A DNA stretch of 64,000 nt from Ktedonobacteria bacterium (lineage in GTDB: Bacteria; Chloroflexota; Ktedonobacteria; Ktedonobacterales; JACDGC01). How positions within the stretch are numbered: position 1 is the first letter of the stretch; each line of letters starts with the position of its first letter. The notes beneath the pieces were generated by a model. The model had not been told where the DNA came from and did not search any database. It saw only the letters and a list, made by a program, of their open reading frames with translations. A program made the translations under genes and the position numbers. Where the stretch lies: contig DAIDIC010000143.1 in NCBI GenBank assembly GCA_027459525.1, positions 3,704 through 67,703 of the forward strand. Direction: 5' to 3'. Of the stretch, positions 1,180 through 63,946 are shown in pieces.

Positions 1180-1311
1180 TAGATCTTGCACTTAAAAGAA
1201 AAAGCGCTGTTTCTCATATCTGCGCAAAGGGAGGCTTGGGAACACCCCAGAATCTCGTACAAGGGGCGCCTGCATTTATATATCCCCAACCATACTGAAG
1301 TGAAAGTCTTG
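1180..1311 (-). mobile_element. Family-A ~137-bp TIR element, copy 1 (decayed)
   Basis: The reverse complement aligns to the family consensus (CAAGACTTTCACTTCAGTATGG...GGCGCCCCTTGTACGAGATTCTGGGGTGTTCCCAAGCCTCCCTTTGCGCAGATATGAGAA...AAGTGCAAGATCTA). The left arm of the internal hairpin is degraded. Flanking 5-mers are AAGGA (1175-1179) and AAAGA (1312-1316). Confidence 0.6.
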
Positions 1312-1731
1312 AAAGATATATCTTGCTCAACAACAGCAAATAAATCTGTCAACGCCACAATTCTTGCGCAAGAAGCGCGCCATTTGCGAATTTCAGATAC
1401 GTTATAAATAAAATTTCCCTATAAAAACGGTAAATAAATCTAAAGACGTAAACAATTCAGTATAACATATAGCGTCGCTTTATATAAATAGAAATTTCAA
1501 GCGCCAAATCGGCGAATAGCCAGATAGTAATATGCGTGGCTGCTTACTCTGAAACACGCTTTTCATAAGTCTGCTTGCCTGATTCACAGAAAATGAATAG
1601 GTTAATACAGCAGGAATCCAACAAAAGCGAAATCTCTTTTACTGAGTTGGGAATATCGCTATCTGTGTATTTCTGCTGTACATGGCGGCAAAATAACTAT
1701 CACGCACACTAAAAATGTGAAATTATCGACT

Positions 1732-2829
1732 TTAGTATTGCGCAATAACCAAACGCTCACCCGGAAAAATAATATCCCCATTGCGACTGTTGGCGTATCC
1801 GCGCCGCCGCGCTACAGTTTCAATCACATCTCTATTGGCGGCGTACACACTGCGCCACGAAGCAACATCAAATTTTTCAGCTATACCAATCAGCGTATCT
1901 CCGGGCTGAACGATATATATCCGCTCGGCAGGCGTTTTTTTCGGCGGATTCTGTGACGAAGGGGCAGGAACCACTCCCGATGATCCATCAGAGCTTCCCG
2001 CCGCCGCGCCATTTTCCCCAACGGAAACACTGCTATTGCGCAGCGCAGCGACAATATTTTGAGTTAATTGGCGGTTAGCCATTGCCGGCATATACTCCCA
2101 TAGCCACACAGACGCAGGACTGCGCTGCGCCGCCGTTTGCGCAATAGACACCGGATGATTGGCGCCAAATTCATTTGTAACATCTACCGCAGGCAATATC
2201 GGCTTTGGGCTTGCCTCCGCCAACTGATGGCCCTGCGCAGCCAGCCAATCATTATACTGCTGAGGTACCCATGCGTCTGCGCAAGGGTTCAGCCGGCGCG
2301 CAACTTCCATCCATCCCTGCTGTATTGGATCTGCCCATGTGGTTATATAAAGCAGCGATGAATTGTTCTGCATCAGGCTGCAAAAACGCTGCGCCGCCAG
2401 AGGATTATTATCCCATTCAATCTCCATATCCGCGCAAGCAAAACCTGTTCCGGTTGGCTCAGCTGAAGCAACGGCGCGCTGCATTTCCCGCAAAACAGCG
2501 CATTCTTCATTAATAAAATTCATTCCAAACCGCGGCCCATAACAATACATAAACGGAATATAGCCCGCCCCAACGTCATGAGCCGCTTTATATTCCGCTG
2601 CAATTTGCTCCGGTCCGCTATACCACTTTCGTGTTCCGTCAGCGCGTTTCACACATAGCGAATCTATTCCCAAACCACGCGCTCGCCGCGCAGCTGCCGC
2701 AATATCCGCAGCGCCCCAAAATTCACTTTCATTACCCACAAATATCACTGTTTTACCTGCCGTAATGGCGGCGTTTGGCTTTGTCATATACCGCTTCTCC
2801 TCAACCATTATTTTGCTGCGAAACATCAC
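1732..2829 (-). CDS. Putative cell-wall hydrolase (TIM-barrel, DUF1906/GH25-like impression) with C-terminal LysM domain, endolysin-like
   Basis: 365-aa ORF. The C-terminus YIVQPGDTLIGIAEKFDVASWRSVYAANRD...GDIIFPGERLVI is a LysM motif. There is no signal peptide. It sits 14 nt downstream of a terminase gene. The N-terminal domain assignment is tentative. Confidence 0.65.
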   Translation of the reverse strand: MMFRSKIMVEEKRYMTKPNAAITAGKTVIFVGNESEFWGAADIAAAARRARGLGIDSLCVKRADGTRKWYSGPEQIAAEYKAAHDVGAGYIPFMYCYGPRFGMNFINEECAVLREMQRAVASAEPTGTGFACADMEIEWDNNPLAAQRFCSLMQNNSSLLYITTWADPIQQGWMEVARRLNPCADAWVPQQYNDWLAAQGHQLAEASPKPILPAVDVTNEFGANHPVSIAQTAAQRSPASVWLWEYMPAMANRQLTQNIVAALRNSSVSVGENGAAAGSSDGSSGVVPAPSSQNPPKKTPAERIYIVQPGDTLIGIAEKFDVASWRSVYAANRDVIETVARRRGYANSRNGDIIFPGERLVIAQY

Positions 2830-2843
2830 ATATTATTTGCCTG

Positions 2844-4424
2844 CTATTCAACGGCGCCGTCAAGGTTTGTTACTACTTCAAACATTCGCACAGCGGCGGC
2901 GGCGGCGTTTGGCTGCGCCGCGGCGCTCAGCGCTATCGCGTGCGCTATCACAATATCGTCATGAAATCCGGCCGGCGCGCCGGTAGATCCATCAGCGCGG
3001 TACGAATACACCAACGCTTCATGCAAAAACTGCCGATCCGCCGGAACATAACTTTGTTCGCGCAAACAGCGCGCTAAATGCGCAATCATCAGCGGTTTCG
3101 TCCGGGTATTTGTCGGCCAGCCGGGTCGGCTTTCTTCCTGCGCCACATCACGTATCGGGTCGCTATAGTAATATAAATGTTCATATCCGGCAGTTTTCAG
3201 CGCCAATAATACGGCAAAGCCATGCTGGTTCCGCTCCACCGCCAGCAGCGCCCCGCCATACAACGCGCCGAGCCGGGCCAGCTTTGCCGCAAAAATATCC
3301 GGCGGCCAGCGGCCATAAATTGCCGCGCATTGTCTTCCTGTTTGCATATCCACCACGCAAGCGGCGTCATAATCCCCATCAGATAATCCCTCCGCGGTAT
3401 CTGCGCCAATTACATAGCAATGACCAGATTGCTGTTCTTCCCATATGCGCACGCCATCTTCAATCTCCTGCGGCGACGGCAGCAAAGCCATTGCCGGCTC
3501 ACATCGCGCCAATATTTCACGATCAAAAACCGGCCGACCGCTTTGCACAAACGCTTCAACTGCTGTTTCCGGATATTCTTGGCTCATCTGCCACGGCTCC
3601 ATTACTGCCATACGTTCTTGGCGCCACTGCTCCGAACGTTCGGGGTTTGCGTTCCATGGCAGAAAAATCGCCGCAAAGGCTCCTAAAACCGGCGATGAGG
3701 CAGCTTGTGCGCCGGTGAGACCACCAACTATATACGCCGGGTGGCTTTTTTGCCATATTCGGTAAAATACATTGCCCACTCCATGCGCAGTAGAAATGCC
3801 GATTATTTGCCCTCCGGCAGATACCGCCGGCTCTATTGCCGTCCATATTTCCTCTTGCCATGGCTGATGCGCCCATTCATCCAGCACAATCAGCGATACC
3901 GCGCGCGATCGCACCGCTCCGCGCGCCGCAGGAAAAGATTCAATACGGCTGGAAACAACTCGTTTTCTTTTTCCCAACGATGCGCCGTTCGCAATCACCG
4001 TGTGCCCAAACTCTAAAATTCTGCCGGAGTGGCGCAGCAGCGTCACCCCATCAGCCGCGCCGGATTCTTCCTGCTTAGCCAAAGCAGCTCTCAGCCAATT
4101 GGGCAAATGTTCATGAGTAAAATAGATTCGCTCCAACAAATCATTTGCGTCGCGTTGATTTCGCGACAGCAACGCAATTTGCGCCGCCGGAGTAAACCGC
4201 GCCATCCACAGCGCATACGCCGCCGCCAGTTCTGAAGCGCCCAACTGCCGTGACTTTAATATAATGACACGTTTTTCCCGCTGAAACACTCCCAAAACAT
4301 CCCGCTGCCAATCCCACAGCAAAAAAGGCACAACACCATGCGACGGATGCCGAATAACACAATACTGTTCAATAAAATATGTGGGATTCCCCTTTATTTT
4401 CGCAAACTCAGCCTCAAAATTCAT
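2844..4424 (-). CDS. Phage terminase large subunit (TerL)-like protein
   Basis: 526-aa ORF with Walker A-like ILKSRQLGASE and Walker B LIVLDEWAH. Nuclease-domain motifs are CYVIGADTAEGLSDGDYDA and LLAVERNQHG. Confidence 0.8.
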   Translation of the reverse strand: MNFEAEFAKIKGNPTYFIEQYCVIRHPSHGVVPFLLWDWQRDVLGVFQREKRVIILKSRQLGASELAAAYALWMARFTPAAQIALLSRNQRDANDLLERIYFTHEHLPNWLRAALAKQEESGAADGVTLLRHSGRILEFGHTVIANGASLGKRKRVVSSRIESFPAARGAVRSRAVSLIVLDEWAHQPWQEEIWTAIEPAVSAGGQIIGISTAHGVGNVFYRIWQKSHPAYIVGGLTGAQAASSPVLGAFAAIFLPWNANPERSEQWRQERMAVMEPWQMSQEYPETAVEAFVQSGRPVFDREILARCEPAMALLPSPQEIEDGVRIWEEQQSGHCYVIGADTAEGLSDGDYDAACVVDMQTGRQCAAIYGRWPPDIFAAKLARLGALYGGALLAVERNQHGFAVLLALKTAGYEHLYYYSDPIRDVAQEESRPGWPTNTRTKPLMIAHLARCLREQSYVPADRQFLHEALVYSYRADGSTGAPAGFHDDIVIAHAIALSAAAQPNAAAAAVRMFEVVTNLDGAVE

Positions 4425-6019: not shown

Positions 6020-6568
6020 CTATGCCGAAATCAGCGATAAATGCAATTGAGCAATGCGGCGGCTATGCAAAGCTTTTACTATCTTCTGCTCAATAGTCCG
6101 CAAATCAGCGGCGTTTGCAATAATTTCATCTATTCCCAAAACATGCATCGGCGTCGTTGCAACTTCTTGAAACGGCTTTAATAAGACAATTGCCACCCCG
6201 TCATATTTTGCTGAACTACGGAGCATTTGAATAAACAACTTTACCAAATCTGGCTCTTCATTGCTCCGAATAAATATTAAATTGGGTATGTCTTGCTCAA
6301 TCTCTTCCGAAGCTTCAACGATACTGTTACTCACATCAACCTCAAAACCCCTGTTCCGCAGAAAATTCGGCAATGGCCCTAGCTGCGAACAAAGCGGATC
6401 GATAATATGAATATGTGGTCGAACATGTGTCTCGCGTAATTCACCAAAGTCATGGCCAACTATTTTTAATTCAATTTTACCTTTTTTCGCTGACTTTGTT
6501 TTTGTAGTCACCAATCGCAATGATTTAGCCATATATTGTTCCCCTCTCAGCCATATGTTATCAGACAA
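6020..6568 (-). CDS. Receiver-like (pseudo-receiver) domain protein
   Basis: 182-aa ORF with a CheY-like layout (IHIIDP...GFEVDV...PNLIFIRSNEEPD...VAIVLLKP). The position of the phospho-acceptor Asp reads R (LIFIR). The call is by eye only. Confidence 0.45.
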   Translation of the reverse strand: MSDNIWLRGEQYMAKSLRLVTTKTKSAKKGKIELKIVGHDFGELRETHVRPHIHIIDPLCSQLGPLPNFLRNRGFEVDVSNSIVEASEEIEQDIPNLIFIRSNEEPDLVKLFIQMLRSSAKYDGVAIVLLKPFQEVATTPMHVLGIDEIIANAADLRTIEQKIVKALHSRRIAQLHLSLISA

Positions 6569-6751: not shown

Positions 6752-6888
6752 CAGGACTTTCGCTGCAGCATGGAACATCGGGGATGTACAAGGGGCGGCG
6801 CCCTTTGTACGGGGTTCTGGGATGTCCCCAGACCTCCCTTTGTTGCAGATACGAGAACCGTGCGCTTCTCTTTCAAGCGAAAGTCTTA
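6752..6888 (+). mobile_element. Family-A 137-bp TIR element, copy 2
   Basis: Sequence CAGGACTTTCGCTGCAGCATGGAACATCGGGGATGTACAAGGGGCGGCGCCCTTTGTACGGGGTTCTGGGATGTCCCCAGACCTCCCTTTGTTGCAGATACGAGAACCGTGCGCTTCTCTTTCAAGCGAAAGTCTTA. Flanking 5-mers are ATACT and ATAAT. Confidence 0.9.
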
Positions 6889-6992: not shown

Positions 6993-7466
6993 ATGGAGCG
7001 GCAGCAAAACATGAATACACCTCAAGCAATTCAAGATCGTTACCCGGATGAATGGAATCATTGCTATGGCTGCGGCAGACTAAATGATAAAAGTTTACGC
7101 ATTACCAGTTATTGGACCGGTGATGAAGCCATATGCAACTATATTCCAAAAGATGAACAAACAGCATTTCCCGGGGTACTTTCCGGCGGCGTTATTGCCT
7201 CAGTAATAGACTGCCACAGTTTAGCGGCGGCTTCAGCGGCGTTTGGCGCACAATTAGGGATTGCGGAAAACGAACCATTACCGCGCTGCGTTACCGCATC
7301 ACTAAAAGTAGATTTTTTAAAACCAACCCCATTGGGACCGGTAACAGTGCGCGCACATGCGCAAGAAATTCGTGGACGCAAAGCTATTATCATCAGTCAT
7401 CTGTTCAGTGGCAGCGAAGAATGCGCGCGCGGTGAAGTAATTGCCGTGCTGAAGCCCGACGCATAA
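6993..7466 (+). CDS. PaaI/hotdog-fold thioesterase family protein
   Basis: The ORF runs 6945-7466. The ATG at 6993 (MERQQNMNTP) is preferred as the start. CYGCG, FPGVLSGGVIASVIDCHS and a C-terminal beta-sheet region are typical of PaaI-like thioesterases. Confidence 0.7.
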   Translation: MERQQNMNTPQAIQDRYPDEWNHCYGCGRLNDKSLRITSYWTGDEAICNYIPKDEQTAFPGVLSGGVIASVIDCHSLAAASAAFGAQLGIAENEPLPRCVTASLKVDFLKPTPLGPVTVRAHAQEIRGRKAIIISHLFSGSEECARGEVIAVLKPDA

Positions 7467-7948
7467 CAAACAGCGCTTTTTATTTGGAGCTGGCCGGCCT
7501 GCACAGCCAGTTCCAAAGCCGACTATCAGTGTTTTTGCCGCTTCTGATAAATCAGCGCAGCGCATTGTTGCACAATCGGCGCGCCAGCCGTCTTACCACG
7601 GTGTTGAAGCGGCGGATAAGCTGATACATATATTCACGCCCCCAATTTGCTGTAAAGATATCCAAAAGTTTTCCCAATTAGCCTAAAATATCTGCATCTC
7701 TTTCCTTTTCATGCTATACTTTACATACGTCTTCCGGCTCTTCGTTTGGTTTTATCCTTCTCGCGCTATTGCTTACAATAACGCATATATCAAAACAAAA
7801 AAAGGGTTGTGAAAAATCTTTAGAGATTCACCGGCGTGAGGATTGATACCCATTATGGATTTTTTTCTGTTAAAGCTGGCTCTGCCGTAAAATAGCAGAA
7901 AAATATCTATCTGTTATTTTGGCAAAAGTTTTAATATTATTATTTATT

Positions 7949-8085
7949 CAGGACTTTCGCTTCAACATGGAAAATCGGGGATGTATAAGGGGCGCTGCCC
8001 CTTATACGGGGTTCTGGGGTGTCCCCAGCCCTCCCTTTGTTGCAGATACAAGAACCATGCGCTGCTCTTTCAAGCGAAAATCCTA
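7949..8085 (+). mobile_element. Family-A 137-bp TIR element, copy 3
   Basis: Full-length copy with perfect 5-bp flanking repeats TTATT (7944-7948 and 8086-8090). It ends 29 nt before the PP2C start codon. Confidence 0.9.
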
Positions 8086-15930: not shown

Positions 15931-16422
15931 TCACTTCTTTTGCGAGGTGTCTTTTGGAATAACGCTGATAGACCCGTCAACCTCCATTACAGCCAATGCA
16001 ACATCGTTCATAGACTCTACGCCATGTTCGCGCAACGCCGCCATAAATTCCTCTTCGGTAATATCTTCCCGGCGCAGCGCTCTCTGTATAACAGCGCCTT
16101 TCGCCGCAAGCACGGTTGGGACGCCGATAACCGCCTTGCGAAACAATATACTGCGGCTGTCCAGCCATGTAACCGCATAGCTTAGCGCCAGCAGCGCCAC
16201 CGCCGCAAGTATGCCCCCATCTAAAGATGTGTCTGGCCCTGTCATAGCGTTTTGCACGGTGTTCGCTATCAATAGCAGCAATGTTAAATCAAATGCGCTT
16301 AACTGGCCCAACTCTCTTTTACCAAATAAACGCAAAGCAACAAGCATAAAAATATATACAATAACCACACGAAACAAAATCTGCCACAATGTTCCGTCCA
16401 GTGTTAAAAAGCCGTTCCACAT
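15931..16422 (-). CDS. DUF421 (YetF-like) membrane protein
   Basis: 163-aa ORF with N-terminal TM helices. It is paralogous to 16668-17210 (shared LRLxGxRxLGQ, LLLIxNxVQNAMxGxDTS, GG(I)xAA motifs). Confidence 0.7.
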   Translation of the reverse strand: MWNGFLTLDGTLWQILFRVVIVYIFMLVALRLFGKRELGQLSAFDLTLLLLIANTVQNAMTGPDTSLDGGILAAVALLALSYAVTWLDSRSILFRKAVIGVPTVLAAKGAVIQRALRREDITEEEFMAALREHGVESMNDVALAVMEVDGSISVIPKDTSQKK

Positions 16423-16440
16423 ACCATTATCCTATATTCT

Positions 16441-16578
16441 TAGGGCTTTCGCTTGAAAGAGAAACGTATATTTCTCGTATCTGCAACAAAGGGTGGTCTG
16501 GGGATACCCCCAGAACCTCGTACAAAGGGCGCCGCCCCTTGTACATCCCCAATGTTCCATGCTGCAGCGAAAGTCCTG
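16441..16578 (-). mobile_element. Family-A 138-bp TIR element, copy 4
   Basis: The reverse complement is full length (CAGGACTTTCGCTGCAGCATGGAACATTGGGGATGTACAAGGGGCGGCGCCCTTTGTACGAGG...AAGCGAAAGCCCTA). It lies between the two DUF421 genes, 18 nt upstream of the start of 15931-16422 and in the same orientation. Confidence 0.9.
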
Positions 16579-16667
16579 ACTCTATATCCTATATTCTTTT
16601 ATTCTTTCGGCAAAATCTTTCTGTGTTTGGCGCGCTGCCGTTACATACATTTCTTCCACAGCATCCT

Positions 16668-17210
16668 TCAGCGCCGCGGACGTCCGCGAATGCGCCGGTG
16701 ATGACGATGTGAATCGATTGTTGAAGATGAAATGGAAATGACCGCCGAATCATTGCCGATGACACTGATTGATCCGTCAATTTCCAGCACAGCAGATTTT
16801 ACTGCGCGATGATCCGGCAGACCGTGTTCGCGCGCCGCCGCATCCAACATTTCAGTTTCTATTAAGCATCGCGCGCAATTTTGTATAATTATCTTGCCAT
16901 TCTGCGCCAATGGCACAGGTTCTCCGCTGGTTAAACGCCTTATAACGGGAGAATTTTCGCTCAGCCAAGCTATGCCGGCGTTGAGCAGCAAGAGTGTAAC
17001 AGCCGCTATGATCCCACCGGTTATTGATGTATCGGTTCCCACCATAGCGTTTTGCACCGAGTTGCTGATGAGCAGCAGCAGCGCCAATTCTACAACGGTC
17101 GATTGGCCAAGAGGCCTGGCTCCAAGCAGGCGCAGCCCAATTAAAAACACAAAATACACGATACTTGTCCGCACAATGATAACAAGTAATGAAGCGTTCC
17201 AAATAAACAT
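16668..17210 (-). CDS. DUF421 (YetF-like) membrane protein
   Basis: 180-aa ORF, a tandem paralogue of 15931-16422. Confidence 0.7.
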   Translation of the reverse strand: MFIWNASLLVIIVRTSIVYFVFLIGLRLLGARPLGQSTVVELALLLLISNSVQNAMVGTDTSITGGIIAAVTLLLLNAGIAWLSENSPVIRRLTSGEPVPLAQNGKIIIQNCARCLIETEMLDAAAREHGLPDHRAVKSAVLEIDGSISVIGNDSAVISISSSTIDSHRHHRRIRGRPRR

Positions 17211-17283: not shown

Positions 17284-17940
17284 TCAGCGCAATTTTTGAG
17301 CAACCTGCTCTGTCCAACGCATCAGTTCTGCGCCGTCCACCAATTTCAGTGGACGCGAAGCAGCCCATTCTTTAGCAGGAGCGGTAAACTCACCGGTGGT
17401 AACCAAAAAACCTTCTTTGGCGTGTTCGGCAAAACTGCCATAAAATTCTCGAACAATCGGCTGGCCAACAGTTCCTTTATATCTTTTACACTGCGCCACC
17501 AAACGCTTACCATCCTTGCGCAGCTCCACATCAATACCTTCATCGCCGCTTTTGCCAACAACTTTTGCAAAATATCCCATACGCTGAAATAAAAACGCTG
17601 TAAATTGCTCAAAACCACCCGGAGACATGGCGTATATATCATCAATAGAGTGGATTCCCAAAACTGTAGCTGCCCAGCTTTCTTTTTTATGCGTTCGCGC
17701 CCAAAATACCGCTAAAAGCACAATACAAACGGCCATTGCCGCGCCGATTGCCACATTTAAGGGGATATTACTTATTTTCGCTAACACAGTGTTATAAGCT
17801 GACACCGCTTGAGCGTCGATTCGAGGGACGATAAAAACCGCGCCATTCAATAAAAAAATTGCGCCGGCTAATACGATAAAAAAGCCAAAAATAAAATGAT
17901 ACCCAATTCGCCGGCGATGCGCATGATGTTTTCTTGCCAT
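17284..17940 (-). CDS. Membrane-anchored Mrr-type (PD-(D/E)xK) restriction-endonuclease-domain protein
   Basis: Two N-terminal TM helices. The C-terminal Mrr_cat-like core is FEQFTAFLFQRMGY...GDEGIDVEL...VAQCKRYKGTVGQPIVREFYG...GFLVTTGEFT. Confidence 0.75.
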   Translation of the reverse strand: MARKHHAHRRRIGYHFIFGFFIVLAGAIFLLNGAVFIVPRIDAQAVSAYNTVLAKISNIPLNVAIGAAMAVCIVLLAVFWARTHKKESWAATVLGIHSIDDIYAMSPGGFEQFTAFLFQRMGYFAKVVGKSGDEGIDVELRKDGKRLVAQCKRYKGTVGQPIVREFYGSFAEHAKEGFLVTTGEFTAPAKEWAASRPLKLVDGAELMRWTEQVAQKLR

Positions 17941-21680: not shown

Positions 21681-21747
21681 TATCTGTAACCGCTGTCTAC
21701 GGCTGATAACTCATTAGCCGGCAGAGATTCTGCTTATGCGGTTGTTG

Positions 21748-21783
21748 CCGGAGCGAAATATTAAATTCGCTCCGGTATTTTTA
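21748..21783 (+). terminator. Rho-independent terminator
   Basis: CCGGAGCGAA-atattaaa-TTCGCTCCGG followed by TATTTTTA. Confidence 0.6.
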
Positions 21784-21797: not shown

Positions 21798-21926
21798 CAG
21801 GACTTTCGCTGCAACATAGAAAATTGGAGATGTATAAGGGGCAGGCGTCCCTTGTACGGGGTTCTGGGGTGTCCCCAGACCTCCCGTATTTCAGAACATG
21901 TGCTTCTCTTTCAAGCGAAAGTTCTA
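21798..21926 (+). mobile_element. Family-A TIR element, copy 5 (129 bp, internal deletion)
   Basis: Both termini and both hairpins are present. The segment CTTTGTTGCAGATACGAGAACC is shortened to CGTATTTCAGAAC. Perfect 5-bp flanking repeats GTTAT lie at 21793-21797 and 21927-21931. The copy ends 24 nt before the start of 21951-23024. Confidence 0.85.
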
Positions 21927-21950: not shown

Positions 21951-23024
21951 ATGATTCTGCTTCATGAAACGGAAACTCCACATTATTTACCCGTTTTAGG
22001 CCTTCAAAAAGGTCACCCCGTTTGGCACGCCATTTCATCTTTACCCGGCGCTAACGGCGCAATAGAACTGCTGCAAATGGCGCGTAAAATTGGCGCCCAC
22101 GATTGCTGGATTCAAGACGCCGGTTCCTATCGCGAACATTTTGATTTATTTAAAAATTCTGTGGAAATTGCGCTGGCTCTTGGCGCAGTGCGCGCCACCA
22201 CATCAGAAATTGGCGCCGTGTTAAAATTAAAAAAAGGCCAATACCCCGATGAAAACGCCATCATTTCCAGTGTTACCAGTTCACAAATGAAATCAATCAT
22301 CTATTCTGCTTCGCAGCGCGCGCCATCATTCTTTACACTATGCGAAACCGCCGCGCAAAATATTTTAAACTTTTTTCTTTGTCGAAATGGAGCTTTTCAA
22401 TCCGCCGCAATTTTGTGCGGCCCAGGAGGCACGGGATTAGTAGGCATAGCGCTGGCGCGCGCCGCCGCGAAAAAATCGCTTCCGGCAGATATTTATTTAA
22501 TCAATCGAAACCATACACTTACGGAAAACGAACACAGCATTATACAAAATCTGGAGCAATCGGGCGCGCATATCTTCACACATATTCCCGCTAAAAATGA
22601 GCTGGCGCGCTACCAATATCTTTTCGACGCGCTGCTGGGCAACGGCTCGGTAAGTGAGCCATATGGAGCGGTTGCCTCCGCTATTTTTGCGCTGCAGCAA
22701 TATCCGCAAAACACTATTGCCATAGATCTGCCTTCCGGTATGGATCCGGATGAGCGCGGTGTGTATGACCTTTGCGTTTGCGCCGCAGAAACCTATATTA
22801 TAACACTGCCGCGCCGATGCCATACCCATACATTCTCCGAACAATACACGGGCAAGCCGCTTATGGTTATGAGCGGAGCGGATAAAAAAGCAATAAAATC
22901 AGTCAGCGCAGGTATCGGCGCCAATGTGCCCTTGCAAGGATATTTTGCGCTGCTGCGGCGCCAGCTTGCCGAAGCGCAAGATTTTTCCAGCGAGTGGACA
23001 CGGTTTATCGCCGATCTGCGTTAG
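21951..23024 (+). CDS. Two-domain protein: N-terminal DUF4031-like, C-terminal YjeF_N (NAD(P)HX epimerase)-like with degenerate glycine motif
   Basis: N-terminus WHAISS...LLQMARKIGAHDCWIQDAGSYREHFDL...ALALGA resembles DUF4031. The C-terminus ILCGPGGTGLVGIALAR...LFDALLGNG...IAIDLPSGMDPD resembles YjeF_N, but GPGGTGLVG replaces the usual GxGNNGGDG. Confidence 0.5.
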   Translation: MILLHETETPHYLPVLGLQKGHPVWHAISSLPGANGAIELLQMARKIGAHDCWIQDAGSYREHFDLFKNSVEIALALGAVRATTSEIGAVLKLKKGQYPDENAIISSVTSSQMKSIIYSASQRAPSFFTLCETAAQNILNFFLCRNGAFQSAAILCGPGGTGLVGIALARAAAKKSLPADIYLINRNHTLTENEHSIIQNLEQSGAHIFTHIPAKNELARYQYLFDALLGNGSVSEPYGAVASAIFALQQYPQNTIAIDLPSGMDPDERGVYDLCVCAAETYIITLPRRCHTHTFSEQYTGKPLMVMSGADKKAIKSVSAGIGANVPLQGYFALLRRQLAEAQDFSSEWTRFIADLR

Positions 23025-25902: not shown

Positions 25903-26014
25903 TAGACCTGAACATGAAAAAGGAAAAGGGGAGTTTGGGGACACCCCAAGCCCTGTCAGGAGTCCCATTGCCTCCTGCGCCTCTGTTTATTCTTTGCTTA
26001 CGCTCAGGTCTCTA
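25903..26014 (+). repeat. Family-B ~112-bp structured repeat, copy 1
   Basis: Sequence TAGACCTGAACATGAAAAAGGAAAAGGGGAGTTTGGGGACACCCCAAGCCCTGTCAGGAGTCCCATTGCCTCCTGCGCCTCTGTTTATTCTTTGCTTACGCTCAGGTCTCTA. The termini are inverted (AGACCTGA / TCAGGTCT). The hairpin TTGGGG-ACA-CCCCAA resembles the family-A hairpin CTGGGG-TGT-CCCCAG. Confidence 0.55.
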
Positions 26015-39210: not shown

Positions 39211-39347
39211 CAAGACTTTCGCTTCAGCATGGAACATCGGGGATATACAAGGGGCAATGCCCCTTGTACGGGGTTCTGGGGTGTCCCCAGACCTCCCTCT
39301 GTTTCAGATACGAGAACCACGTGCTTCTCTTTCCAGCGAAAGTCCTA
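39211..39347 (+). mobile_element. Family-A 137-bp TIR element, copy 6
   Basis: Full-length copy with flanking 5-mers GTCTT and GTTTT. It is antisense to both neighbouring genes. Confidence 0.9.
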
Positions 39348-39548: not shown

Positions 39549-40484
39549 TTAGCCACGGGCAAAATTACTCATAATAAAAAACAGATTGGCTGGCCGTTCA
39601 GCCATTCTTCTTGTTAAATAGGGATACCACTGAGATCCATAGGGAATATAAATTCTTACATTATATCCCTCTCCCTGTAACTGATTCTGCAGATCTCGGC
39701 GGATGCCATACAACATCTGAAATTCAAATTGTGATGGCGCAATACCGTTTTCTTTCGCAAATCGTTTCGCGTCAGCTATCAGCCGTACATCATGTGTGCC
39801 AAACGCTGGGTATATTCCTTTTTTCAGCAGTTTATACATTATTTGCCGATAATTCTCATCTACATCACTCTTTGCTGGAAACGCAATAGCTGAAGGTTCT
39901 TGATATGCGCCTTTAACCAGCCGCACACGTATGCCGTCCTCAATCAACCGATCGATATCATCCGAACTGCGATACAACATCGACTGAATAACTGTTCCTA
40001 CATTTCCGCCAACTTGCCCAATCGATTCAGAGTACTCAGCGTGCAGCATGTGTGTTAAACGCAAGGTTCGCTCGGTATACGCCGAACCCTCCATATCTAA
40101 GCGAACAAAATTGCCTTGCGCCTGCGCGGTGTCTAAAACGGTCCGCACATTTTTCAGGCAGGCGTCCTCACTGATATCCAAGCCCAACGCGGTTAATTTA
40201 ATAGAAATATTGGCGTTTAAATGATGCTCGGCTATCGCATTTAAAATTGCAATATACCCTTGGGCAGTTGCTTCCGATTCTTCAATACTGCCGGTATTTT
40301 CACCTAAATGATCCAATGTCGCCATGACGCCGTGTTCATTCAGCTCTTTTGCAGACTGCAGAGCAGAAGATAAATCTTCCCCGGCAACAAAACGGCTGGC
40401 GATATTTTTCCCCATAGGGTTTTCATTAACGAAATTTTGAATCATCTTCGATTTTGCTGCCGTTAAAACTAAACTTCTTAACAT
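39549..40484 (-). CDS. Proline dehydrogenase (monofunctional)
   Basis: SRFVAGEDL, ISIKLTALG, VRLDMEGS and RLVKGAY motifs. The ATG at 40484 is preferred over the one at 40553. Confidence 0.85.
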   Translation of the reverse strand: MLRSLVLTAAKSKMIQNFVNENPMGKNIASRFVAGEDLSSALQSAKELNEHGVMATLDHLGENTGSIEESEATAQGYIAILNAIAEHHLNANISIKLTALGLDISEDACLKNVRTVLDTAQAQGNFVRLDMEGSAYTERTLRLTHMLHAEYSESIGQVGGNVGTVIQSMLYRSSDDIDRLIEDGIRVRLVKGAYQEPSAIAFPAKSDVDENYRQIMYKLLKKGIYPAFGTHDVRLIADAKRFAKENGIAPSQFEFQMLYGIRRDLQNQLQGEGYNVRIYIPYGSQWYPYLTRRMAERPANLFFIMSNFARG

Positions 40485-40569
40485 ACTTCTTTGTATATCT
40501 CCAATCACTTGGCTATATTTATAACTATGCGCTTTTAGCGTTACCAAAAACATCGCTATATACTAATTT

Positions 40570-40705
40570 CAGGGCTTTCGCTGCAACATGGAACATCGGG
40601 GATGTACAAGGGGCGCCGCCCCTTGTACGAGGTTCTGGGGTGTCCCCAGACCTCCCTTTTTGCAGATACGAGAACCATGCGCTTCTCTTTCAAGCGAAAG
40701 TCCTA
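40570..40705 (+). mobile_element. Family-A 136-bp TIR element, copy 7
   Basis: Near-consensus copy with a perfect internal hairpin GTACAAGGGGCG/CGCCCCTTGTAC. Perfect 6-bp flanking repeats TAATTT lie at 40564-40569 and 40706-40711. Confidence 0.9.
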
Positions 40706-46921: not shown

Positions 46922-47563
46922 ATGCTAAAAGTAAAGAAAAAACAGCGCTTTCCACTTATCGGACTAATCTTGTTTCTCATATTTATGGCTTTTTATGTTA
47001 TAACCGATAATTCCCAAAATCAGTTTTTTCCTTTCATTGCAGCCATTACTGTGTTAGTCTTGGTTTTTATTATAGCGCCCATATTTCTTATCACTATGGC
47101 GCGGCGCTCGGGGGTAAACAATTTTATTTCACACTTGGCGTCTCCGGCAAAAACATTTCATGCGCAGTCACTTGCAGAGATGCAGAAAATGACACCAGCA
47201 GAATTTGAACACTTTGTTGGCTCTTTATTTCAAAAACAGGGATACAACGTTCGGGTAACCGGCAAAACCGGCGATAACGGCATTGATATTGAATTAATTT
47301 CAAATAGCAATGGCGAGCAAAAACGCAGCGTCGTGCAATGCAAACGATACAAAGGATCGGTTGGGGAAAGCATTGTCCGTGAATTTTATGGATCGTTCGC
47401 CGGCGCCGCGGAACAAGGCTATTTAATAACGACAGGAACGTTTACGGAACCCGCAAAAAAATGGGTGAGAAATCGGCCGCTAATATTAATCGATGGGCAC
47501 GAATTAGTTCGCTGGGCAACGCGAGTAACACAGCCAACTACTGAAAAATCAGGCGTTGTTTAA
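46922..47563 (+). CDS. Membrane-anchored Mrr-type restriction-endonuclease-domain protein (paralogue of 17284-17940)
   Basis: Two N-terminal TM helices. The core is FEHFVGSLFQKQGY...GDNGIDIEL...VVQCKRYKGSVGESIVREFYG...GYLITTGTFT. Confidence 0.75.
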   Translation: MLKVKKKQRFPLIGLILFLIFMAFYVITDNSQNQFFPFIAAITVLVLVFIIAPIFLITMARRSGVNNFISHLASPAKTFHAQSLAEMQKMTPAEFEHFVGSLFQKQGYNVRVTGKTGDNGIDIELISNSNGEQKRSVVQCKRYKGSVGESIVREFYGSFAGAAEQGYLITTGTFTEPAKKWVRNRPLILIDGHELVRWATRVTQPTTEKSGVV

Positions 47564-48500: not shown

Positions 48501-49370
48501 TTAGGGCTTGCGCGCGCGAATAAAAGCGCCTGCAAATAACCCATCCAGCTTTGCGCGATCACTTTCTGAAATATCTGAAAAATCAGCGCCGCCGGCAATA
48601 GCGTCTTGCGCGCTATATCTTCTGGTTACTTCGATTTCAATATCTGTAAAGCCTGCCGCCGATAACAGATCACGATACTCACCATCTTCTAAAGCGCCGG
48701 CAATACAGCCCGCCCAAGCTTCCAGGCTTTGCCTGAATTGGCGCGCATATTCCGGAATATGCCCCAAAATCACAACATCCGAAACTGCAAAACGTCCGCC
48801 CGGCTTCAATACACGAAACGACTCTCGCAATACCTTGGCTTTATCAACAGAAAGATTTATGACACAATTGGAAATAATAACATGAACCGTTGCATCCGGT
48901 AAAGGAATTTCTTCAATTGTTCCCTTAAGAAACTGCACATTGTTACTATCTGCTTGCTTGCGATTGCGTTCCGCTAGTTCCAACATCTCGTCTGTCATAT
49001 CCAAACCATATACAAAGCCGGAAGGACCCACTCTGCGCGCTGACAAGAATACATCGATACCGCCGCCACTGCCTAAATCTAAAACTATTTCCCCTTCGCG
49101 TAAACTCGCCAAAGCAGTGGGATTGCCACAACCTAATGACGCCAACACGGCGGCAACAGGCGCGCCGGCAAGCTCGTCCTGAGTATAGATATTTGCTGAA
49201 ATAGGATCTTGTTCGCCACCGCAGCAGGCGGAACCACAGCAATTATTATTTTTGCTTCCGGTGGTATTCAAGGCGTTTTGCGCAACCTGCGCGTAACGAT
49301 TGCGTACAGATTCCTGTATAGTAGTATTGTCTGTTTGGTTACTCATTCTGTTTTGTTCCTTTCTTGACAC
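48501..49370 (-). CDS. arsM: Arsenite S-adenosylmethionine methyltransferase-like protein
   Basis: SAM motif VLDLGSGGGIDVFLSARRVGPSGFVYGLDMTDEML, plus VIISNCVINLS. Conserved Cys clusters are NNCCGSACCGG, LGCGNP and AGCIAG. Confidence 0.8.
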   Translation of the reverse strand: MSRKEQNRMSNQTDNTTIQESVRNRYAQVAQNALNTTGSKNNNCCGSACCGGEQDPISANIYTQDELAGAPVAAVLASLGCGNPTALASLREGEIVLDLGSGGGIDVFLSARRVGPSGFVYGLDMTDEMLELAERNRKQADSNNVQFLKGTIEEIPLPDATVHVIISNCVINLSVDKAKVLRESFRVLKPGGRFAVSDVVILGHIPEYARQFRQSLEAWAGCIAGALEDGEYRDLLSAAGFTDIEIEVTRRYSAQDAIAGGADFSDISESDRAKLDGLFAGAFIRARKP

Positions 49371-49435
49371 TCCGCATGGGCTAAAGCCGCAGCGGATTTT
49401 TGGTTCACCGGCGCGTTTATTTTCCAGATTTTCAC

Positions 49436-49479
49436 ATTACCAAGATAGCTTGACCAACCATGCAAACTATCTTGGTAAT
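49436..49479. promoter_or_regulatory. Perfect 13-bp inverted repeat upstream of arsM (candidate operator or hairpin)
   Basis: ATTACCAAGATAG (49436-49448), an 18-nt spacer, then CTATCTTGGTAAT (49467-49479). It lies 66-109 nt upstream of the arsM start. Confidence 0.45.
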
Positions 49480-49537
49480 ACGGCAAACACAAACTTCCCT
49501 TAGCTATTGAGCCGGCAGCGCTGTATATTTGCGTAAT

Positions 49538-49664
49538 CAGGCAGCATGGAACATCGGGAATGTACAAGGGGCGGCGCCCCTTGTACGGGGTTCTGGAGTA
49601 TCCCCAGACCGACCTTTGTTGCAGATACAAGAACTATGCGCTTCTCTTTCAAGCGAAAGTCTTA
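49538..49664 (+). mobile_element. Family-A TIR element, copy 8 (127 bp; 9-10 nt deleted from left terminus)
   Basis: It begins CAGGCAGCATGGAACATCGGG, which lacks ACTTTCGCT of the left TIR. The rest is near consensus with a perfect internal hairpin. Flanking 5-mers are GTAAT and ATAAT. Confidence 0.85.
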
Positions 49665-51125: not shown

Positions 51126-51974
51126 ATGCAGTCCTTTGAGCAGTCTGTTCAACGAAATAGCCGGGTGGCGCTGGCCTTTTTAGAACGCAACTTTAACCTG
51201 ACAAAACGCTATTGGGCTTGGGAGTTGGTATGGATAACATATAACATTGTGAATGGTATATCAGTTACCTATATCGCTGCCGGCGCCAATGCTGTTATAC
51301 CGGGATTTCATATTTCGCAAAGCCAGTTAAACACCGCCATTCTGGTCTTGGTAATCGGCACTGCAGTGTGGTCATATATCTCCACCTGTTTCGACGATGT
51401 CGCCATGTTGTTTACTATTGAAAAATGGGAAGGCACACTAGAATATACCTTTATGGCGCCTATTAAACGAGTTACCATGATGTTTGGAGCCAGCATATAC
51501 GCAGTTATTCACGGTTTTGTGCTGACCGCAATCCAACTGGTAGTTATGGCGATGTTTTTCCACATCGATTTAAGCAAAGCTAATTTTTGGACCGCAATTC
51601 TCATATTGCTGCTAGGCACGGCGTCATTCATCGGCTTTGGGTTTATTACCGCAGTGCTGCCAATGCTTTTTACGGAATATGGGGACAAAATGGGGTTCAT
51701 CGTTCGGTCTGTTATTCTGTTAGTTTCGGGAGTATACTACCCAGTAACGGTTTTACCCAAGTGGATGCAAACGCTTTCAGCAATTTCGCCTGCGACATAT
51801 GTTTTAGATGGCTTGCGCCGCAGTTTAATCAATGGGCAGCCTATTTGGCAAATGTGGAGCAGCGTAATCATTCTGGTTATTTCCGGCGCAATATCCATAC
51901 CGGCTGGATTATGGGTCTTCCGAAAAGGAGAAGAATACGCCAAACGAACCGGCAAATTAAAACGCAACGGATAA
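51126..51974 (+). CDS. ABC-2 type transporter permease
   Basis: 282-aa ORF with 6 hydrophobic helices, immediately downstream of the ATPase. Confidence 0.8.
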   Translation: MQSFEQSVQRNSRVALAFLERNFNLTKRYWAWELVWITYNIVNGISVTYIAAGANAVIPGFHISQSQLNTAILVLVIGTAVWSYISTCFDDVAMLFTIEKWEGTLEYTFMAPIKRVTMMFGASIYAVIHGFVLTAIQLVVMAMFFHIDLSKANFWTAILILLLGTASFIGFGFITAVLPMLFTEYGDKMGFIVRSVILLVSGVYYPVTVLPKWMQTLSAISPATYVLDGLRRSLINGQPIWQMWSSVIILVISGAISIPAGLWVFRKGEEYAKRTGKLKRNG

Positions 51975-52117
51975 TTTACTTAGCGCTGCGGCAAAACAGA
52001 GCAAAGATATACATGAGGCAGGCGCCAAGACTTTTACAGGTTTTTGGCGCATTCCCCAATAAACGTATATTGCTGCAGTTTATAACAAAACATACATACA
52101 CACATACGAGGATAGTT

Positions 52118-53407
52118 ATGTCGAATATTTTTGATTGGCAAAAGCCGCAGGAACGCGCTTTTCTTATTGCGGTAAATTCCAAAAAGGCCGACACCCACTG
52201 GAGTGTAGAAGATTCCTTGGCGGAATTGGCTTCTTTGGCAAAAACTGCCGGAGCCGAAGTTGTAGGAACCGCAGTTCAGCAATTGGAAAAGCCCGACCCG
52301 CGCACCTATTTCGGCAAAGGCCGCGCAGAAGAATTGGTTGGATTGTGCAGCGCTGTAGACGCTTCATTGATTATAGCTGATGATGAGCTGACCCCAAACC
52401 AACAACTGCATCTTGAAGAAATCCTAAAAATGGACGTTATCGACCGCACCGCGCTGATATTAGATATTTTCGCGCTCCATGCGCGATCTCGCGAGGGGCA
52501 AATGCAAGTGGAACTGGCGCAATATGAATATCAACTGCCACGGCTTTTGGGGCTGCGCAATCACCTCTCTCGGCAAGCCGGCGGCGCTATCGGTGGGGCT
52601 ATCGGCACACGCGGCCCCGGCGAAACACGGCTGGAGGTAAATCGACGCCGCGTGCGCGACCGCATTGCCGAATTAAAGCAGGAAATTAACCTTATCAGCC
52701 GGCATAGAGATCTGCAGCATAAACAGCGCAAATTTGAAATGGTTCCCGTTGTAGCGCTGGTTGGCTACACAAACGCCGGTAAATCAACCTTATTTAACAC
52801 ACTTACATCGGCGGATACTCTGGCAGAAAATATTTTGTTTGCAACACTAGACCCCACAACCAGACAATTAACGCTGCCAGGTCATCAAGAAGCGCTGCTG
52901 AGCGACACCGTGGGCTTTATTCAAAAATTGCCCACAAGCTTGGTTACCGCGTTCCGCGCAACGTTAGAGGAAGCTCGCGAAGCAGATTTGCTGTTGGAAG
53001 TAGTAGATATTTCTCACGAAAACGCAATTGAACAAAACTTAACGGTGTTTGATGTGCTAAAAAGTCTGAAATTAGCTGATAAACCACGGATTACTGCATT
53101 AAATAAAATTGACGCGGTGACAGATCGCGCAGCAATTGATACAACTCTGTACCAAAACCCAACGCTTATTTCTGCGCACTCCGGAGAAGGCAAACAGCAG
53201 CTTTTAGAAGCCATCAGCGCGCAATTAACCGCCAACATGCAGCCATTCCGCGCATTTCTGCCGTTTCAGCGCGGCGATTTAGTGGAAATAATTCACCGCC
53301 GCGGTTTAGTTTCGAAAGAAATATACGCCGCCGATGGCATACACATAGAAGGCCGCATTCCTGCGCATTTGGAAAAATCTTTGCAGCAATACGCTATGGA
53401 AGATTAA
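52118..53407 (+). CDS. hflX: GTPase HflX
   Basis: The HflX N-domain (ERAFLIAV..., DELTPNQQLHLEE) is followed by the G-domain motifs GYTNAGKSTLFN, DTVGF and NKID. The ATG at 52118 follows GAGGA. The upstream part of ORF 51587-53407 overlaps the permease and is not coding. Confidence 0.9.
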   Translation: MSNIFDWQKPQERAFLIAVNSKKADTHWSVEDSLAELASLAKTAGAEVVGTAVQQLEKPDPRTYFGKGRAEELVGLCSAVDASLIIADDELTPNQQLHLEEILKMDVIDRTALILDIFALHARSREGQMQVELAQYEYQLPRLLGLRNHLSRQAGGAIGGAIGTRGPGETRLEVNRRRVRDRIAELKQEINLISRHRDLQHKQRKFEMVPVVALVGYTNAGKSTLFNTLTSADTLAENILFATLDPTTRQLTLPGHQEALLSDTVGFIQKLPTSLVTAFRATLEEAREADLLLEVVDISHENAIEQNLTVFDVLKSLKLADKPRITALNKIDAVTDRAAIDTTLYQNPTLISAHSGEGKQQLLEAISAQLTANMQPFRAFLPFQRGDLVEIIHRRGLVSKEIYAADGIHIEGRIPAHLEKSLQQYAMED

Positions 53408-60983: not shown

Positions 60984-61156
60984 AGCAATACTGCCACTTT
61001 TCATCAGAAATATTTTTTGAAAGGAAACCATTAATTACATGCGCGCGTTCTGCCGGTTCAGGTATCCTCTCATACATACATCGGATCGACAGTATCGGAT
61101 CATAAACTTTGTTTTTGTTGGAAAGATTGGTCTTAAGTTGATACGTTAGAATATGC

Positions 61157-61645: not shown

Positions 61646-62246
61646 GTTTTTCCTTTCACGCCTCAATGCGCAGGATGTTATACTTAAACACACCTGCTGG
61701 TTTCATGAACTATAAGCGTTCCAATTAAATGGTAAAAAGAGCCGGTATCCGCTTGAGTAGAGCGCCAAGTTTTGCGCGTTAGGCAACGCTTGCTGTTTCT
61801 GCCTGCAACAGATACATGGAAAGTCCTTAATGAGACGTATGGCGGCTTATATTTAGGACATACAGCGCGCTTTATGTTCAAGATGTATCAATTGCCGCTA
61901 TTGACTTATGGCATTGCCTCCAAAAGATACCCAGTGAATAAGCAAATCCTAGATCTGCAAGAATTGCCCGTAATGATCCCCACTCCCTGAGCTGTTGTCT
62001 GTTTTTTTGTAAAAATTTGCTGTGAACTGAAAAATTTTCCCCCAATTTCCTGCAAAATTTGTAACATTTGCCATTTCTCTCTGCTCTAATATGCGCAATA
62101 TCCGAAATATGATATGTATCTATGTTTATTGCGCAAACCCATACGCTCAAAATATTTCTTTTTTTCAGTGAGCGGCGCAACATACAGCAGATATTTGCTT
62201 CAAAACCGGTACTTTACACATACAATTTTTTACACAGGAGCGCTTT

Positions 62247-63701
62247 ATGGCAAACCCTAAAATCATACAGGGCGGAATGGGAATAGCAGTCTCTAACTGG
62301 AAGCTGGCAAAAGCGGTTTCACAAACTGGCAATCTAGGCGTTATTTCTGGAACGGTTATCGGCCTTGTGCTGGCTCGCCGCCTGCAAATGGGAGATTCCA
62401 ATGGAGATTCGCGGCGCGCGTTAGCGCACTTTCCCAACCAAGAAGTGGCTCAGCGAATTATTGATAAATACTATATACCAGGCGGAAAACCAGAAAATAT
62501 CCCATTTAAAACAGTGCCCATGCTCACCATGCCACTGCGCAGTGATGTGGAAGAGTTGATTATTGCAGCAGCGTTTACCGAAGTGTGGCTGGCTAAAGAA
62601 GGTCATTCCGGTGTTGTCGGCATGAATGTGCTGGAAAAAGTGCAACTGCCGCATGTAGCCGCGCTTTTTGGGGCAATGCTGGCCGGAGTAGATTATATTC
62701 TTATGGGCGCCGGCATACCTACCCAAGTTCCCGGTGTACTAGACGCGCTCGCTGAGTATCGTGAAACAGCTTATAAAATAGATGTCGATCTGGCCGATAA
62801 AGATGATAATTTTGAAATTCGTATGAATCCCGCCAAATACTTCCCGGATAATAAACCGCAGTTAAAACGACCGCAGTTTCTGGCAATTATTTCCTCAGCA
62901 GTGCTTGGAAAAATGCTCATAAATAAATCTTCCGGCAAAGTAAACGGGTTTGTGGTCGAAGGGCCAACCGCCGGAGGACACAACGCGCCTCCACGCGGCC
63001 CAATGAAGCTGAATGAAAAAGGCGAGCCGATTTACGGTGATCGCGACGCAGTAAATTTTCAGCAGCTTCGCGAATTGGGGCTGCCTTTCTGGATGGCAGG
63101 TTCTTATGCTCACCCCGATATGATTCAAAAAGCGCTGGATGAAGGCGCCATGGGCATTCAGGCAGGCACTATATTTGCCTTATGCGACGAATCCGGCTTT
63201 GCTGAAGATGTAAAACAGGCAATCAGGATAAAAGGCTATAATGGCGATATGTCGGTTTTTACCGATCCACTGGCTTCTCCAACCGGATTTCCTTTTAAAG
63301 TAGCCTTACTGGATAATACACTGTCAGAAAATGACGTATATCAGCAAAGACCGCGCCGCTGTGACATCGGACGACTGCGCACACCATATAAACGAAGTGA
63401 CGGCATTGTCGGCTATAAATGCCCGGCAGAGCCGCTGAAAGATTATATTCGCAAAGGCGGCAAAGAAGAAGACACCGCCGGCAGAAAATGTCTATGCAAC
63501 GCTCTCATGGCAAATATCGATCTTGGGCAAGCCCACCCTTCCGGCTACCAAGAGGAAAAATTGGTAACGCTGGGCGATGACCTCAGTTTTCTGCGCGGAG
63601 TAATGTGCAGCGCATCCGACAGATATACCGCGGCTGACGCGCTGGAATATTTAATGCAAAATGTAAAAGCGGAAAGCGCCATCGGGGTTGGCATAGCCTA
63701 A
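62247..63701 (+). CDS. Nitronate monooxygenase-family (NMO/2-nitropropane dioxygenase-like) flavoprotein
   Basis: IIQGGMGIAVSNWKLAKAVSQTGNLGVISG at the N-terminus, plus GFVVEGPTAGGHN. Confidence 0.8.
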   Translation: MANPKIIQGGMGIAVSNWKLAKAVSQTGNLGVISGTVIGLVLARRLQMGDSNGDSRRALAHFPNQEVAQRIIDKYYIPGGKPENIPFKTVPMLTMPLRSDVEELIIAAAFTEVWLAKEGHSGVVGMNVLEKVQLPHVAALFGAMLAGVDYILMGAGIPTQVPGVLDALAEYRETAYKIDVDLADKDDNFEIRMNPAKYFPDNKPQLKRPQFLAIISSAVLGKMLINKSSGKVNGFVVEGPTAGGHNAPPRGPMKLNEKGEPIYGDRDAVNFQQLRELGLPFWMAGSYAHPDMIQKALDEGAMGIQAGTIFALCDESGFAEDVKQAIRIKGYNGDMSVFTDPLASPTGFPFKVALLDNTLSENDVYQQRPRRCDIGRLRTPYKRSDGIVGYKCPAEPLKDYIRKGGKEEDTAGRKCLCNALMANIDLGQAHPSGYQEEKLVTLGDDLSFLRGVMCSASDRYTAADALEYLMQNVKAESAIGVGIA

Positions 63702-63743
63702 ACCTAAAACGGCGCCAGAAAAATATATCTGCTTTAATTGCAT

Positions 63744-63770
63744 AGAGGGCGGCTCCAAGAGCCGCCCTCT
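63744..63770 (+). terminator. Strong hairpin downstream of the NMO gene (probable terminator)
   Basis: AGAGGGCGGCTC-CAA-GAGCCGCCCTCT forms a 12-bp perfect stem. It is followed by a GT-rich tract rather than a pure T tract. Confidence 0.5.
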
Positions 63771-63812
63771 GCGTGTGTGTATCCCGTGCGCCATTAAAAA
63801 ACGATATCAGTG

Positions 63813-63946
63813 CAAGACTTTCGCTTTAGCATGAAAAAATCGGGGCTGTAAGGGACGGCGCCCCTTGTACAGGGTTCCGGGGTGTCCCCAGACCTCCCTT
63901 TGTTGCAGATACGAAATATGCGCGTCTCTTTCAAGCGAAAGCCCTA
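63813..63946 (+). mobile_element. Family-A TIR element, copy 9 (134 bp)
   Basis: CAAGACTTTCGCTTTAGCATGAAAAAATCGGGGCTGTAAGGGACGGCGCCCCTTGTACAGGGTTCCGGGGTGTCCCCAGACC...CAAGCGAAAGCCCTA. The left arm of the internal hairpin is damaged. Confidence 0.85.

Follow-up and report, generated by a model that had tools for sequence, protein, structure and literature searches.

An uncultured, Ktedonobacteria-like Chloroflexota soil bacterium carries, in a 64,000-nucleotide stretch of its genome (assembly GCA_027459525.1, contig DAIDIC010000143.1, positions 3,704 to 67,703; referred to below as the window), nine copies of a short, hairpin-rich repeat that is bounded by terminal inverted repeats (TIRs). The window is ordinary chromosome; its genes include folC, a CCA-adding/poly(A) polymerase-family gene, aroA, tyrA, hflX, proline dehydrogenase, ECF sigma factors, ABC and ECF transporters and histidine kinases. 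All 4-kb bins show negative GC skew, which places the window within one replichore. The named homologues of its proline dehydrogenase come from Ktedonobacterales, the best non-self match having 66% amino-acid identity, and the same organism (99.6-99.8% identical) is represented in ENA ERZ27237364, GCA_027399355.1, GCA_021812265.1 and SRR13206618. Here we report the structure, surroundings and distribution of these repeats, which are very probably the copies of a miniature inverted-repeat transposable element (MITE), a DNA transposon of the non-autonomous type. The element is repeated, carries TIRs, is flanked by a short target-site duplication (TSD), lies in AT-rich intergenic DNA, has no coding capacity and decays in a characteristic pattern.

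An earlier sequence-only reading of this DNA had listed nine sites, and a BLASTN search of its consensus against the window yields full-length matches at all of them, with identities from 77% (copy 1180; copies are named here by their first position) to 97% (copy 40570). An nhmmer profile recovers the same nine copies, and a tenth intact copy is absent from the window. The copies measure 129-138 bp, the full element being 137 bp, and they occur in both orientations as described, seven on the plus strand and two on the minus strand, a bias that is not significant. The nine differences counted between copies 6752 and 40570 were reproduced as eight substitutions and one indel. One boundary had to be moved: the copy given as 49538-49664 is real, but its start lies nearer 49534, and it has suffered a deletion of about 10 bp in the left TIR instead of a 5' truncation. 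The window contains no second repeat family according to self-BLAST, which gives one match outside the family (68% over 131 bp) between Mrr-like paralogues.

All nine copies are intergenic, and gene calls made independently on other assemblies agree; no credible gene is interrupted, exactly as had been proposed, and the open reading frames (ORFs) that cross copies are artefactual. Since a crude ORF tiling leaves only ~17% of the window non-coding, this placement is far from random, and by our own estimate the chance of nine random sites all being non-coding is ~0.17^9, of the order of 1e-7. The GC content is 52% in the element, 37% in the 100-bp flanks and 46% in the window.

Ends and target-site duplication

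The outer ends of the element read CAGG…CCTA and form 13-bp TIRs (YAGGACTTTCGCT). Their 12-nt core (AGGACTTTCGCT, with up to one mismatch allowed) was counted 15 times, where chance predicts 0.23 and none of 100 shuffles gave more than 2; all 15 matches are located at element ends. The inverted repeat first described as 12 nt long is thereby confirmed, although its length is 13 nt when the outer YA is counted. Just inside the TIRs lies a second, subterminal inverted pair, GCATGG/CCATGC, which was absent from the earlier description and makes the ends bipartite. The two TIR halves of a single copy change independently of each other.

A TSD was sought in 11 independent copies by comparing the five bases on each side of CAGG…CCTA, with 5000 left/right permutations. 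The flanking pentamers agree at 36 of 55 positions, compared with a permuted mean of 22.6, and none of the 5000 permutations reaches 36; the signal is gone in every shifted register and at k = 4, 6, 7 and 8. Because the 5-bp duplication is specific to this register, it fixes the ends of the element at CAGG…CCTA. Exact duplications flank copies 7949 (TTATT), 21798 (GTTAT) and 40570 (TAATTT, 6 bp), and six more copies match at four of five bases. The duplicated pentamer is AT-rich and nearly always ends in T (NNNNT); at copy 6752 it is part of a -10-like TATACT. Around copy 16441 (window 16400-16620) a 13-bp direct repeat, AGAATATAGGATA, is found on both sides of the element with the left one offset by 6 bp, and probably represents a local AT-rich repeat plus the TSD.

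Two other interpretations of the flanks were rejected. A TA duplication of the IS630 type is ruled out, the left flank lacking TA and the 5-bp register alone being significant. Composite transposons were considered for two directly oriented pairs, copies 6752 and 7949 around a 4HBT thioesterase gene and copies 39211 and 40570 around the proline dehydrogenase gene; since the outer flanks do not correspond and every copy is accompanied by a TSD of its own, the paired copies were inserted separately.

The duplication also bears on an origin of a quite different kind, in which the repeat would be a REP/REPIN or IS200/IS605-derived (PATE) palindrome that travels in single-stranded form, its RAYT or Y1 (HUH) transposase recognising hairpins and not terminal repeats. 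REP/REPIN palindromes measure 20-40 bp and come with a RAYT gene, and IS200/IS605-derived PATEs are inserted 3' of a fixed tetra- or pentanucleotide. The perfect GC-rich palindromes of the core would suit such an origin, as would the fact that seven of nine copies share one strand where GC skew is uniformly negative across the window. Single-strand transposition of the HUH/RAYT type is not known to leave a target duplication, however, whereas a 5-bp TSD is present here; furthermore, the element has true TIRs, its hairpins are central and not subterminal, and the inversion of two copies out of nine speaks against a strict strand bias. The first hairpin of the core starts with GTAC and not with the GTAG or CGTC tag of the REP superfamilies (PMC3733652). 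Nor does the window hold a RAYT or TnpA gene, and we regard this origin as very improbable. More generally, when essentially all substantial ORFs of the window were scanned against Pfam and NCBIfam, no transposase, RAYT or integrase emerged, in line with the previous statement that a mobilising gene is lacking there.

Hairpin core and coding capacity

Two hairpins occupy the GC-rich core, and the copy alignments display both as they had been drawn from the sequence. Hairpin 1 is an 11-12-bp GC-rich palindrome (GTACAAGGGGC/GCCCCTTGTAC) with a variable loop of 3-4 nt, and hairpin 2 is CTGGGG-TGT-CCCCAG with a stem of 6-7 bp; hairpin 2 followed by CCTCCCTTTGTT is weakly terminator-like.

The element has no coding capacity. 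When the consensus was translated in all six frames and searched at the protein level, it matched two database ORFs only, both of them over-extended or spurious calls through copies. Stop codons are missing from three plus frames and one minus frame of the element, and because it is open in several frames the ORFs that cross copies are artefacts. Spurious or over-extended calls of this kind comprise M50 peptidase models of 375 amino acids (P0002/P0003) and 444 amino acids (P0004), a phantom ORF of 180 amino acids (P0001) and, in the window, the ORFs at 16389-16712(+) and 49343-49630(-). For genome annotation this means that gene callers extend the N-terminus of the M50 peptidase through a copy and invent proteins over the element.

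A multicopy family of structured non-coding RNA genes (small RNAs or riboregulators) that is not mobile would share some of these properties. Its fold would be very stable, as is the case here (z about -5.7), and on the plus strand G·U wobbles in hairpin 1 exceed A·C mismatches. The opposite strand is equally stable, though, with z-scores of -5.75 and -5.53 for the two strands, as expected of a DNA palindrome. RNA covariation was not found in the copy alignment, the alignment fold having a covariation term of +1.14 kcal/mol and a double change in 3 of 39 pairs. At gathering threshold Rfam has no match anywhere in the window, and its permissive E-value mode returns a single match of 11.9 bits (E = 8). 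Neither a promoter nor a terminator stands at a fixed position, and a promoter scan reports no sigma-70-like promoter inside the copies. An outward promoter at the right end was also considered, the junction of TA and TSD often being -10-like, and was rejected, there being no -35 at the right spacing and no call by the scanner. TIRs and TSDs, neutral GC-to-AT decay, and indels that remove parts of the structure likewise speak against RNA genes. The evidence favours a DNA element over an RNA gene, and we consider the latter extremely unlikely.

Copies, decay and distribution

The copies diverge from the consensus by 4-30 substitutions (3-23%), overwhelmingly C-to-T and G-to-A (Table 1). Such GC-to-AT transitions are the expected decay of GC-rich DNA that drifts towards intergenic composition; copy 7949 contains one compensatory change, from C-G to T-A, in hairpin 1. 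Variants common to different copies at columns 3, 14, 25, 28, 38, 109 and 136 define subfamilies, which implies more than one source copy or amplification wave. A third decayed remnant was located at L010:1537-1597 (L numbers denote loci of other assemblies) in addition to two in the window, and the existence of strongly decayed remnants argues for long residence in the lineage. The copies would now appear to be old, mostly inactive insertions in decay.

Table 1. Copies and remnants of the element in the window, followed by further loci of the same organism; flanking duplications are written left/right.
Feature	Position	Strand	Setting	Flanking duplication	Sequence
Copy	1180-1311	-		TCTTT/TCCTT (4/5)	Oldest in window; 30 substitutions and 5 gap columns against consensus
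Copy	6752-6888	+	Divergent region between 6020-6568(-) and thioesterase gene (7012-7467); insertion directly 3' of -10-like TATACT	ATACT/ATAAT	Near-consensus, 4 substitutions
Copy	7949-8085	+	Right end 29 bp upstream of PP2C gene start (8115)	TTATT/TTATT (exact)	
Copy	16441-16578	-	Between two tandem DUF421/YetF paralogues; right end 18 bp upstream of ATG at 16422	AGAGT/AGAAT	
Copy	21798-21926	+	20 bp downstream of terminator-like hairpin; 24 bp upstream of ATG at 21951 (YjeF_N-domain gene, 21951-23024)	GTTAT/GTTAT (exact)	9-bp internal deletion
Copy	39211-39347	+	3' of proline dehydrogenase gene, 5' of ECF sigma factor gene	GTCTT/GTTTT	
Copy	40570-40705	+	Divergent region upstream of proline dehydrogenase	TAATTT/TAATTT (exact, 6 bp)	Near-consensus, 4 substitutions
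Copy	49534-49664	+		GTAAT/ATAAT	~10-bp deletion inside left TIR (CAGG^CAGCATGG)
Copy	63813-63946	+	Downstream of 62247-63701	Decayed; GTG alone in common	Diverged, 19 substitutions
Decayed remnant	25925-25959	-			Hairpin-2 region only (CTTGGGGTGTCCCCAAACTCCCC)
Probable strongly decayed remnant (weak call)	51985-52056	+			Model positions 11-78, nhmmer E = 0.025
Further locus	L008 and L009		Upstream of M50 peptidase gene		
Further locus	L007		689-bp anonymous contig		
Further locus	L010		Downstream of fumC		Different copy

The neighbourhood of the copies yielded several observations in their own right. The tandem DUF421/YetF-family paralogues that enclose copy 16441 lie at 15931-16422(-) and 16668-17210(-). 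The terminator-like hairpin near copy 21798 (21746-21777) is a strong one, with a 12-bp stem and then a T-run, and lies downstream of a DinB_2-family gene. The proline dehydrogenase ORF at 39549-40553(-) exceeds its homologues by about 23 codons (93% coverage), and in the HflX-like GTPase ORF at 51587-53407(+) the Pfam domains start only at residue 208; the longest-ORF starts of both are probably too far upstream. Elsewhere in the window, the Mrr_cat/NA-iREase1 restriction-endonuclease-like paralogues occupy 17284-17940(-) and 46922-47563(+). At 1732-4424(-), a 526-residue protein whose N-terminal domain is Terminase_6N-like (E = 2e-7) adjoins one with a weak LysM match, and NCBIfam gives no match; this could be what remains of a phage, or else an ATPase of unrelated origin.

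The further loci were recovered by a search with the translated consensus for ORFs mis-called across the element. Contigs of other assemblies break inside copies 6752, 40570 and 39211 (the end of L003, 7545-7614, and both ends of L015, 1-35 and 1256-1313), which is typical of a multicopy repeat; the element fragments short-read assemblies of this organism. At the M50 peptidase gene, the contigs have the gene and the right flank in common, and the left flanks differ, with fumC on one side of the comparison (L010:6860-7060) and a Ser/Thr kinase gene on the other (L009:4590-4790, L008:10000-10200). The element body of L010 differs from that of L008/L009 at about 10 positions and the junction falls in the last ~15 bp of the element, so that either two copies have recombined or a metagenome contig is chimeric.

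With nine copies in 64 kb, the density of the window is ~140 copies per Mb and the element makes up ~1.9% of its DNA. No further intact copy is present in ~22 kb of flanking DNA of the same organism that was not directly ascertained (L001:1-5430, L010:1-6880 and 10 kb on the upstream side of the L008 copy), and pooling these with the window gives ~105 per Mb. With the genome sizes of cultured Ktedonobacteria, 5.5-13.7 Mb (PMC6497799), several hundred to more than 1000 copies per genome may be extrapolated from the window and this flanking DNA. The very large family postulated at the outset gains from the copies at three other loci and from the contigs that break in copies, and loses from the ~22 kb of flanks that lack an intact copy. 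The highest density in a census of 183,232 genomes is 123 MITEs per Mb, in Wolbachia and with all families pooled (preprint 10.1101/2024.01.18.576219); if the window is representative, the density reported here equals or exceeds that maximum.

Outside this organism the element has not been encountered in the collections searched. Diagnostic 21-25-mers, both exact and degenerate, gave chance matches only in GTDB representative genomes, where the host lineage is seemingly absent, and in JGI metagenomes; the only two pattern matches, in an Acidobacteriaceae metagenome-assembled genome and in a 1.5-kb contig, were dismissed as chance because these sequences are otherwise dissimilar to the element. 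The diagnostic patterns have no match in IMG/VR, BLASTN of a copy has none in plasmid and phage collections, and neither the element nor a comparable repeat is present in two relatives at 64-66% amino-acid identity (21 kb each). The family appears to be restricted to its host lineage, a lineage seemingly absent from the scanned genome collection. Searches of the literature gave primers and unrelated papers but no account of the element or its TIR, nor was a MITE found described for Ktedonobacteria-like Chloroflexota; together with the empty Rfam, phage and plasmid searches and the pattern scans, this bears out the suspicion that the family is undescribed.

Classification, possible mechanism and related elements

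Prokaryotic MITEs are shorter than 500 bp, have TIRs of 4-30 bp, are flanked by decaying direct repeats in AT-rich intergenic targets, form stable stem-loops and are mobilised in trans (PMC10969869). The element resembles them in its size and lack of coding capacity, its TIRs and TSD, its dispersed copies at unrelated loci, its AT-rich intergenic targets and its stable fold, and it departs from them in composition (52% GC), where AT-richness is typical but not strictly defining. It does not pass the tests for REP/REPIN, IS200/IS605-derived PATE, Correia/CREE or any Rfam family. The claim that this is a TIR-bounded, hairpin-rich, intergenic and non-autonomous family is supported as far as it is testable, with the TSD as a new addition. 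Because no cognate insertion sequence (IS) is known, the family, previously uncatalogued, fits best among the type II or orphan MITEs.

Several observations count against a MITE. The element is GC-richer than the DNA of its host, whereas MITEs are typically AT-rich. The window has no transposase, and neither a cognate enzyme nor a complete IS with such ends has been found. Most copies have an imperfect TSD, and L007 and copy 63813 have none. Presence/absence polymorphism was not observed, copies 1180, 6752, 7949, 39211 and 40570 all being present at the same sites in the other, 99.6-99.8% identical assemblies; the copies checked are each shared by three or four assemblies, which gives no indication of recent mobility. 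The databases contain no relative of intermediate distance; the next ones, at 66% amino-acid identity in proline dehydrogenase, are too distant for an empty-site comparison and are not syntenic. Finally, the hairpin-2 stem is the least variable part of the element, with 6 changes in 13 columns where the element-wide rate predicts ~15, or 0.46 changes per column against ~1.3 elsewhere. This hints at a constraint on hairpin 2 beyond neutral decay, although it rests on 12 related copies and we do not consider it established.

As to how a MITE of this kind would have spread, TIRs combined with a staggered 5-bp cut are what a DDE-type transposase characteristically leaves when it works on element ends, and the TSD and TIRs would indicate cut-and-paste transposition. 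A transposase of this type encoded elsewhere in the genome may have bound the TIRs and acted in trans. Insertion would have proceeded through a 5-bp staggered cut in AT-rich, often -10-like intergenic DNA ending in T, with 5 bp (once 6 bp) duplicated. Several genes would thereby have been left with a very stable, structured insert of 137 nt in their leader or 3' region, and this insert may modulate transcript stability or translation.

The last point leads to a further alternative, that the repeats descend from a MITE but have been co-opted by the host, the GC-rich hairpin core now serving as a cis-regulatory or structural module. Such a module could be an RNA structure in the 5' leader or 3' untranslated region (UTR) that stabilises or attenuates transcripts, a CCUCC anti-Shine-Dalgarno-like trap for the downstream ribosome-binding site, or a site for a nucleoid protein. 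The right end lies 18-33 bp upstream of a start codon in four copies (7949, 16441, 21798 and L008, the last at the M50 peptidase gene), so that the four downstream genes would have to be transcribed through or out of the element. By our own tabulation, six copies have co-directional settings, and five of these are in sense orientation relative to the gene beside them; the low variability of the hairpin-2 stem and the terminator-like score of hairpin 2 with CCTCCCTTTGTT would also fit, and Correia, ERIC and SPRITE elements have documented functions of this sort (PMC10969869). Set against this, the orientation bias is not significant, covariation is lacking and both strands fold equally, no sigma-70-like promoter lies within the element, the copies are visibly decaying with their hairpins included, and the conservation signal comes from 12 related copies. 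Co-option is therefore unlikely, and decaying copies of a MITE remain the interpretation that we prefer.

The family provides a record of a high-density MITE in Ktedonobacteria-like Chloroflexota; the TIR and 5-bp TSD offer a handle for finding the responsible IS, and the genes with a 137-nt hairpin-rich leader insert are natural test cases. General concepts are unchanged, since MITEs of the same architecture are well known and represent ordinary selfish DNA. A more far-reaching version, which we think doubtful, would see a genome-saturating orphan MITE (100-140 copies per Mb if the window is representative) whose conserved hairpin core has been co-opted for many genes as a leader/UTR RNA or protein-binding module, and whose mobilisation may depend on a kind of transposase with no established connection to MITEs.

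Amongst known systems, the Correia elements of Neisseria (CREE/NEMIS) are alike in having ~100-200 bp, TIRs, a comparable density (about one per 7 kb here), a frequent position just upstream of genes that leads to co-transcription, and no known autonomous parent. Correia elements duplicate a TA dinucleotide and carry 26-bp TIRs, promoters and an IHF site. The present element, in contrast, has a 5-bp TSD and a 13-bp TIR, no promoter-like site was detected in it, its sequence is not similar, and its host belongs to another phylum. ERIC/IRU, RUP, BOX/SPRITE and the cyanobacterial Nezha-type MITEs are likewise intergenic imperfect palindromes of ~100-150 bp that can enter transcripts and alter mRNA fate, but their sequences, TIRs and target duplications are unrelated to those described here. 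The IS630-type elements with which RUP and Nezha are associated have TA targets, which does not agree with a 5-bp TSD.

Duplications of 5 bp (or 5-6 bp) are made by IS1634, the ISAba11 group of IS701, ISH3, IS1380, IS2-type members of IS3, and Tn3. The AT-rich 5-6-bp duplication and the terminal C may point to IS1634-like or other IS4-related families of the ISfinder tables, which is a lead and not a test; the end to be matched is CAGGACTTTCGCT. From the prokaryotic type II MITEs the element differs in its GC content (52% against 46%), and no sequence similarity to catalogued elements was found; it is like them in being small, non-coding and multicopy, in possessing TIRs, decaying repeats and a stable stem-loop, and in occupying AT-rich intergenic DNA with no transposase nearby.

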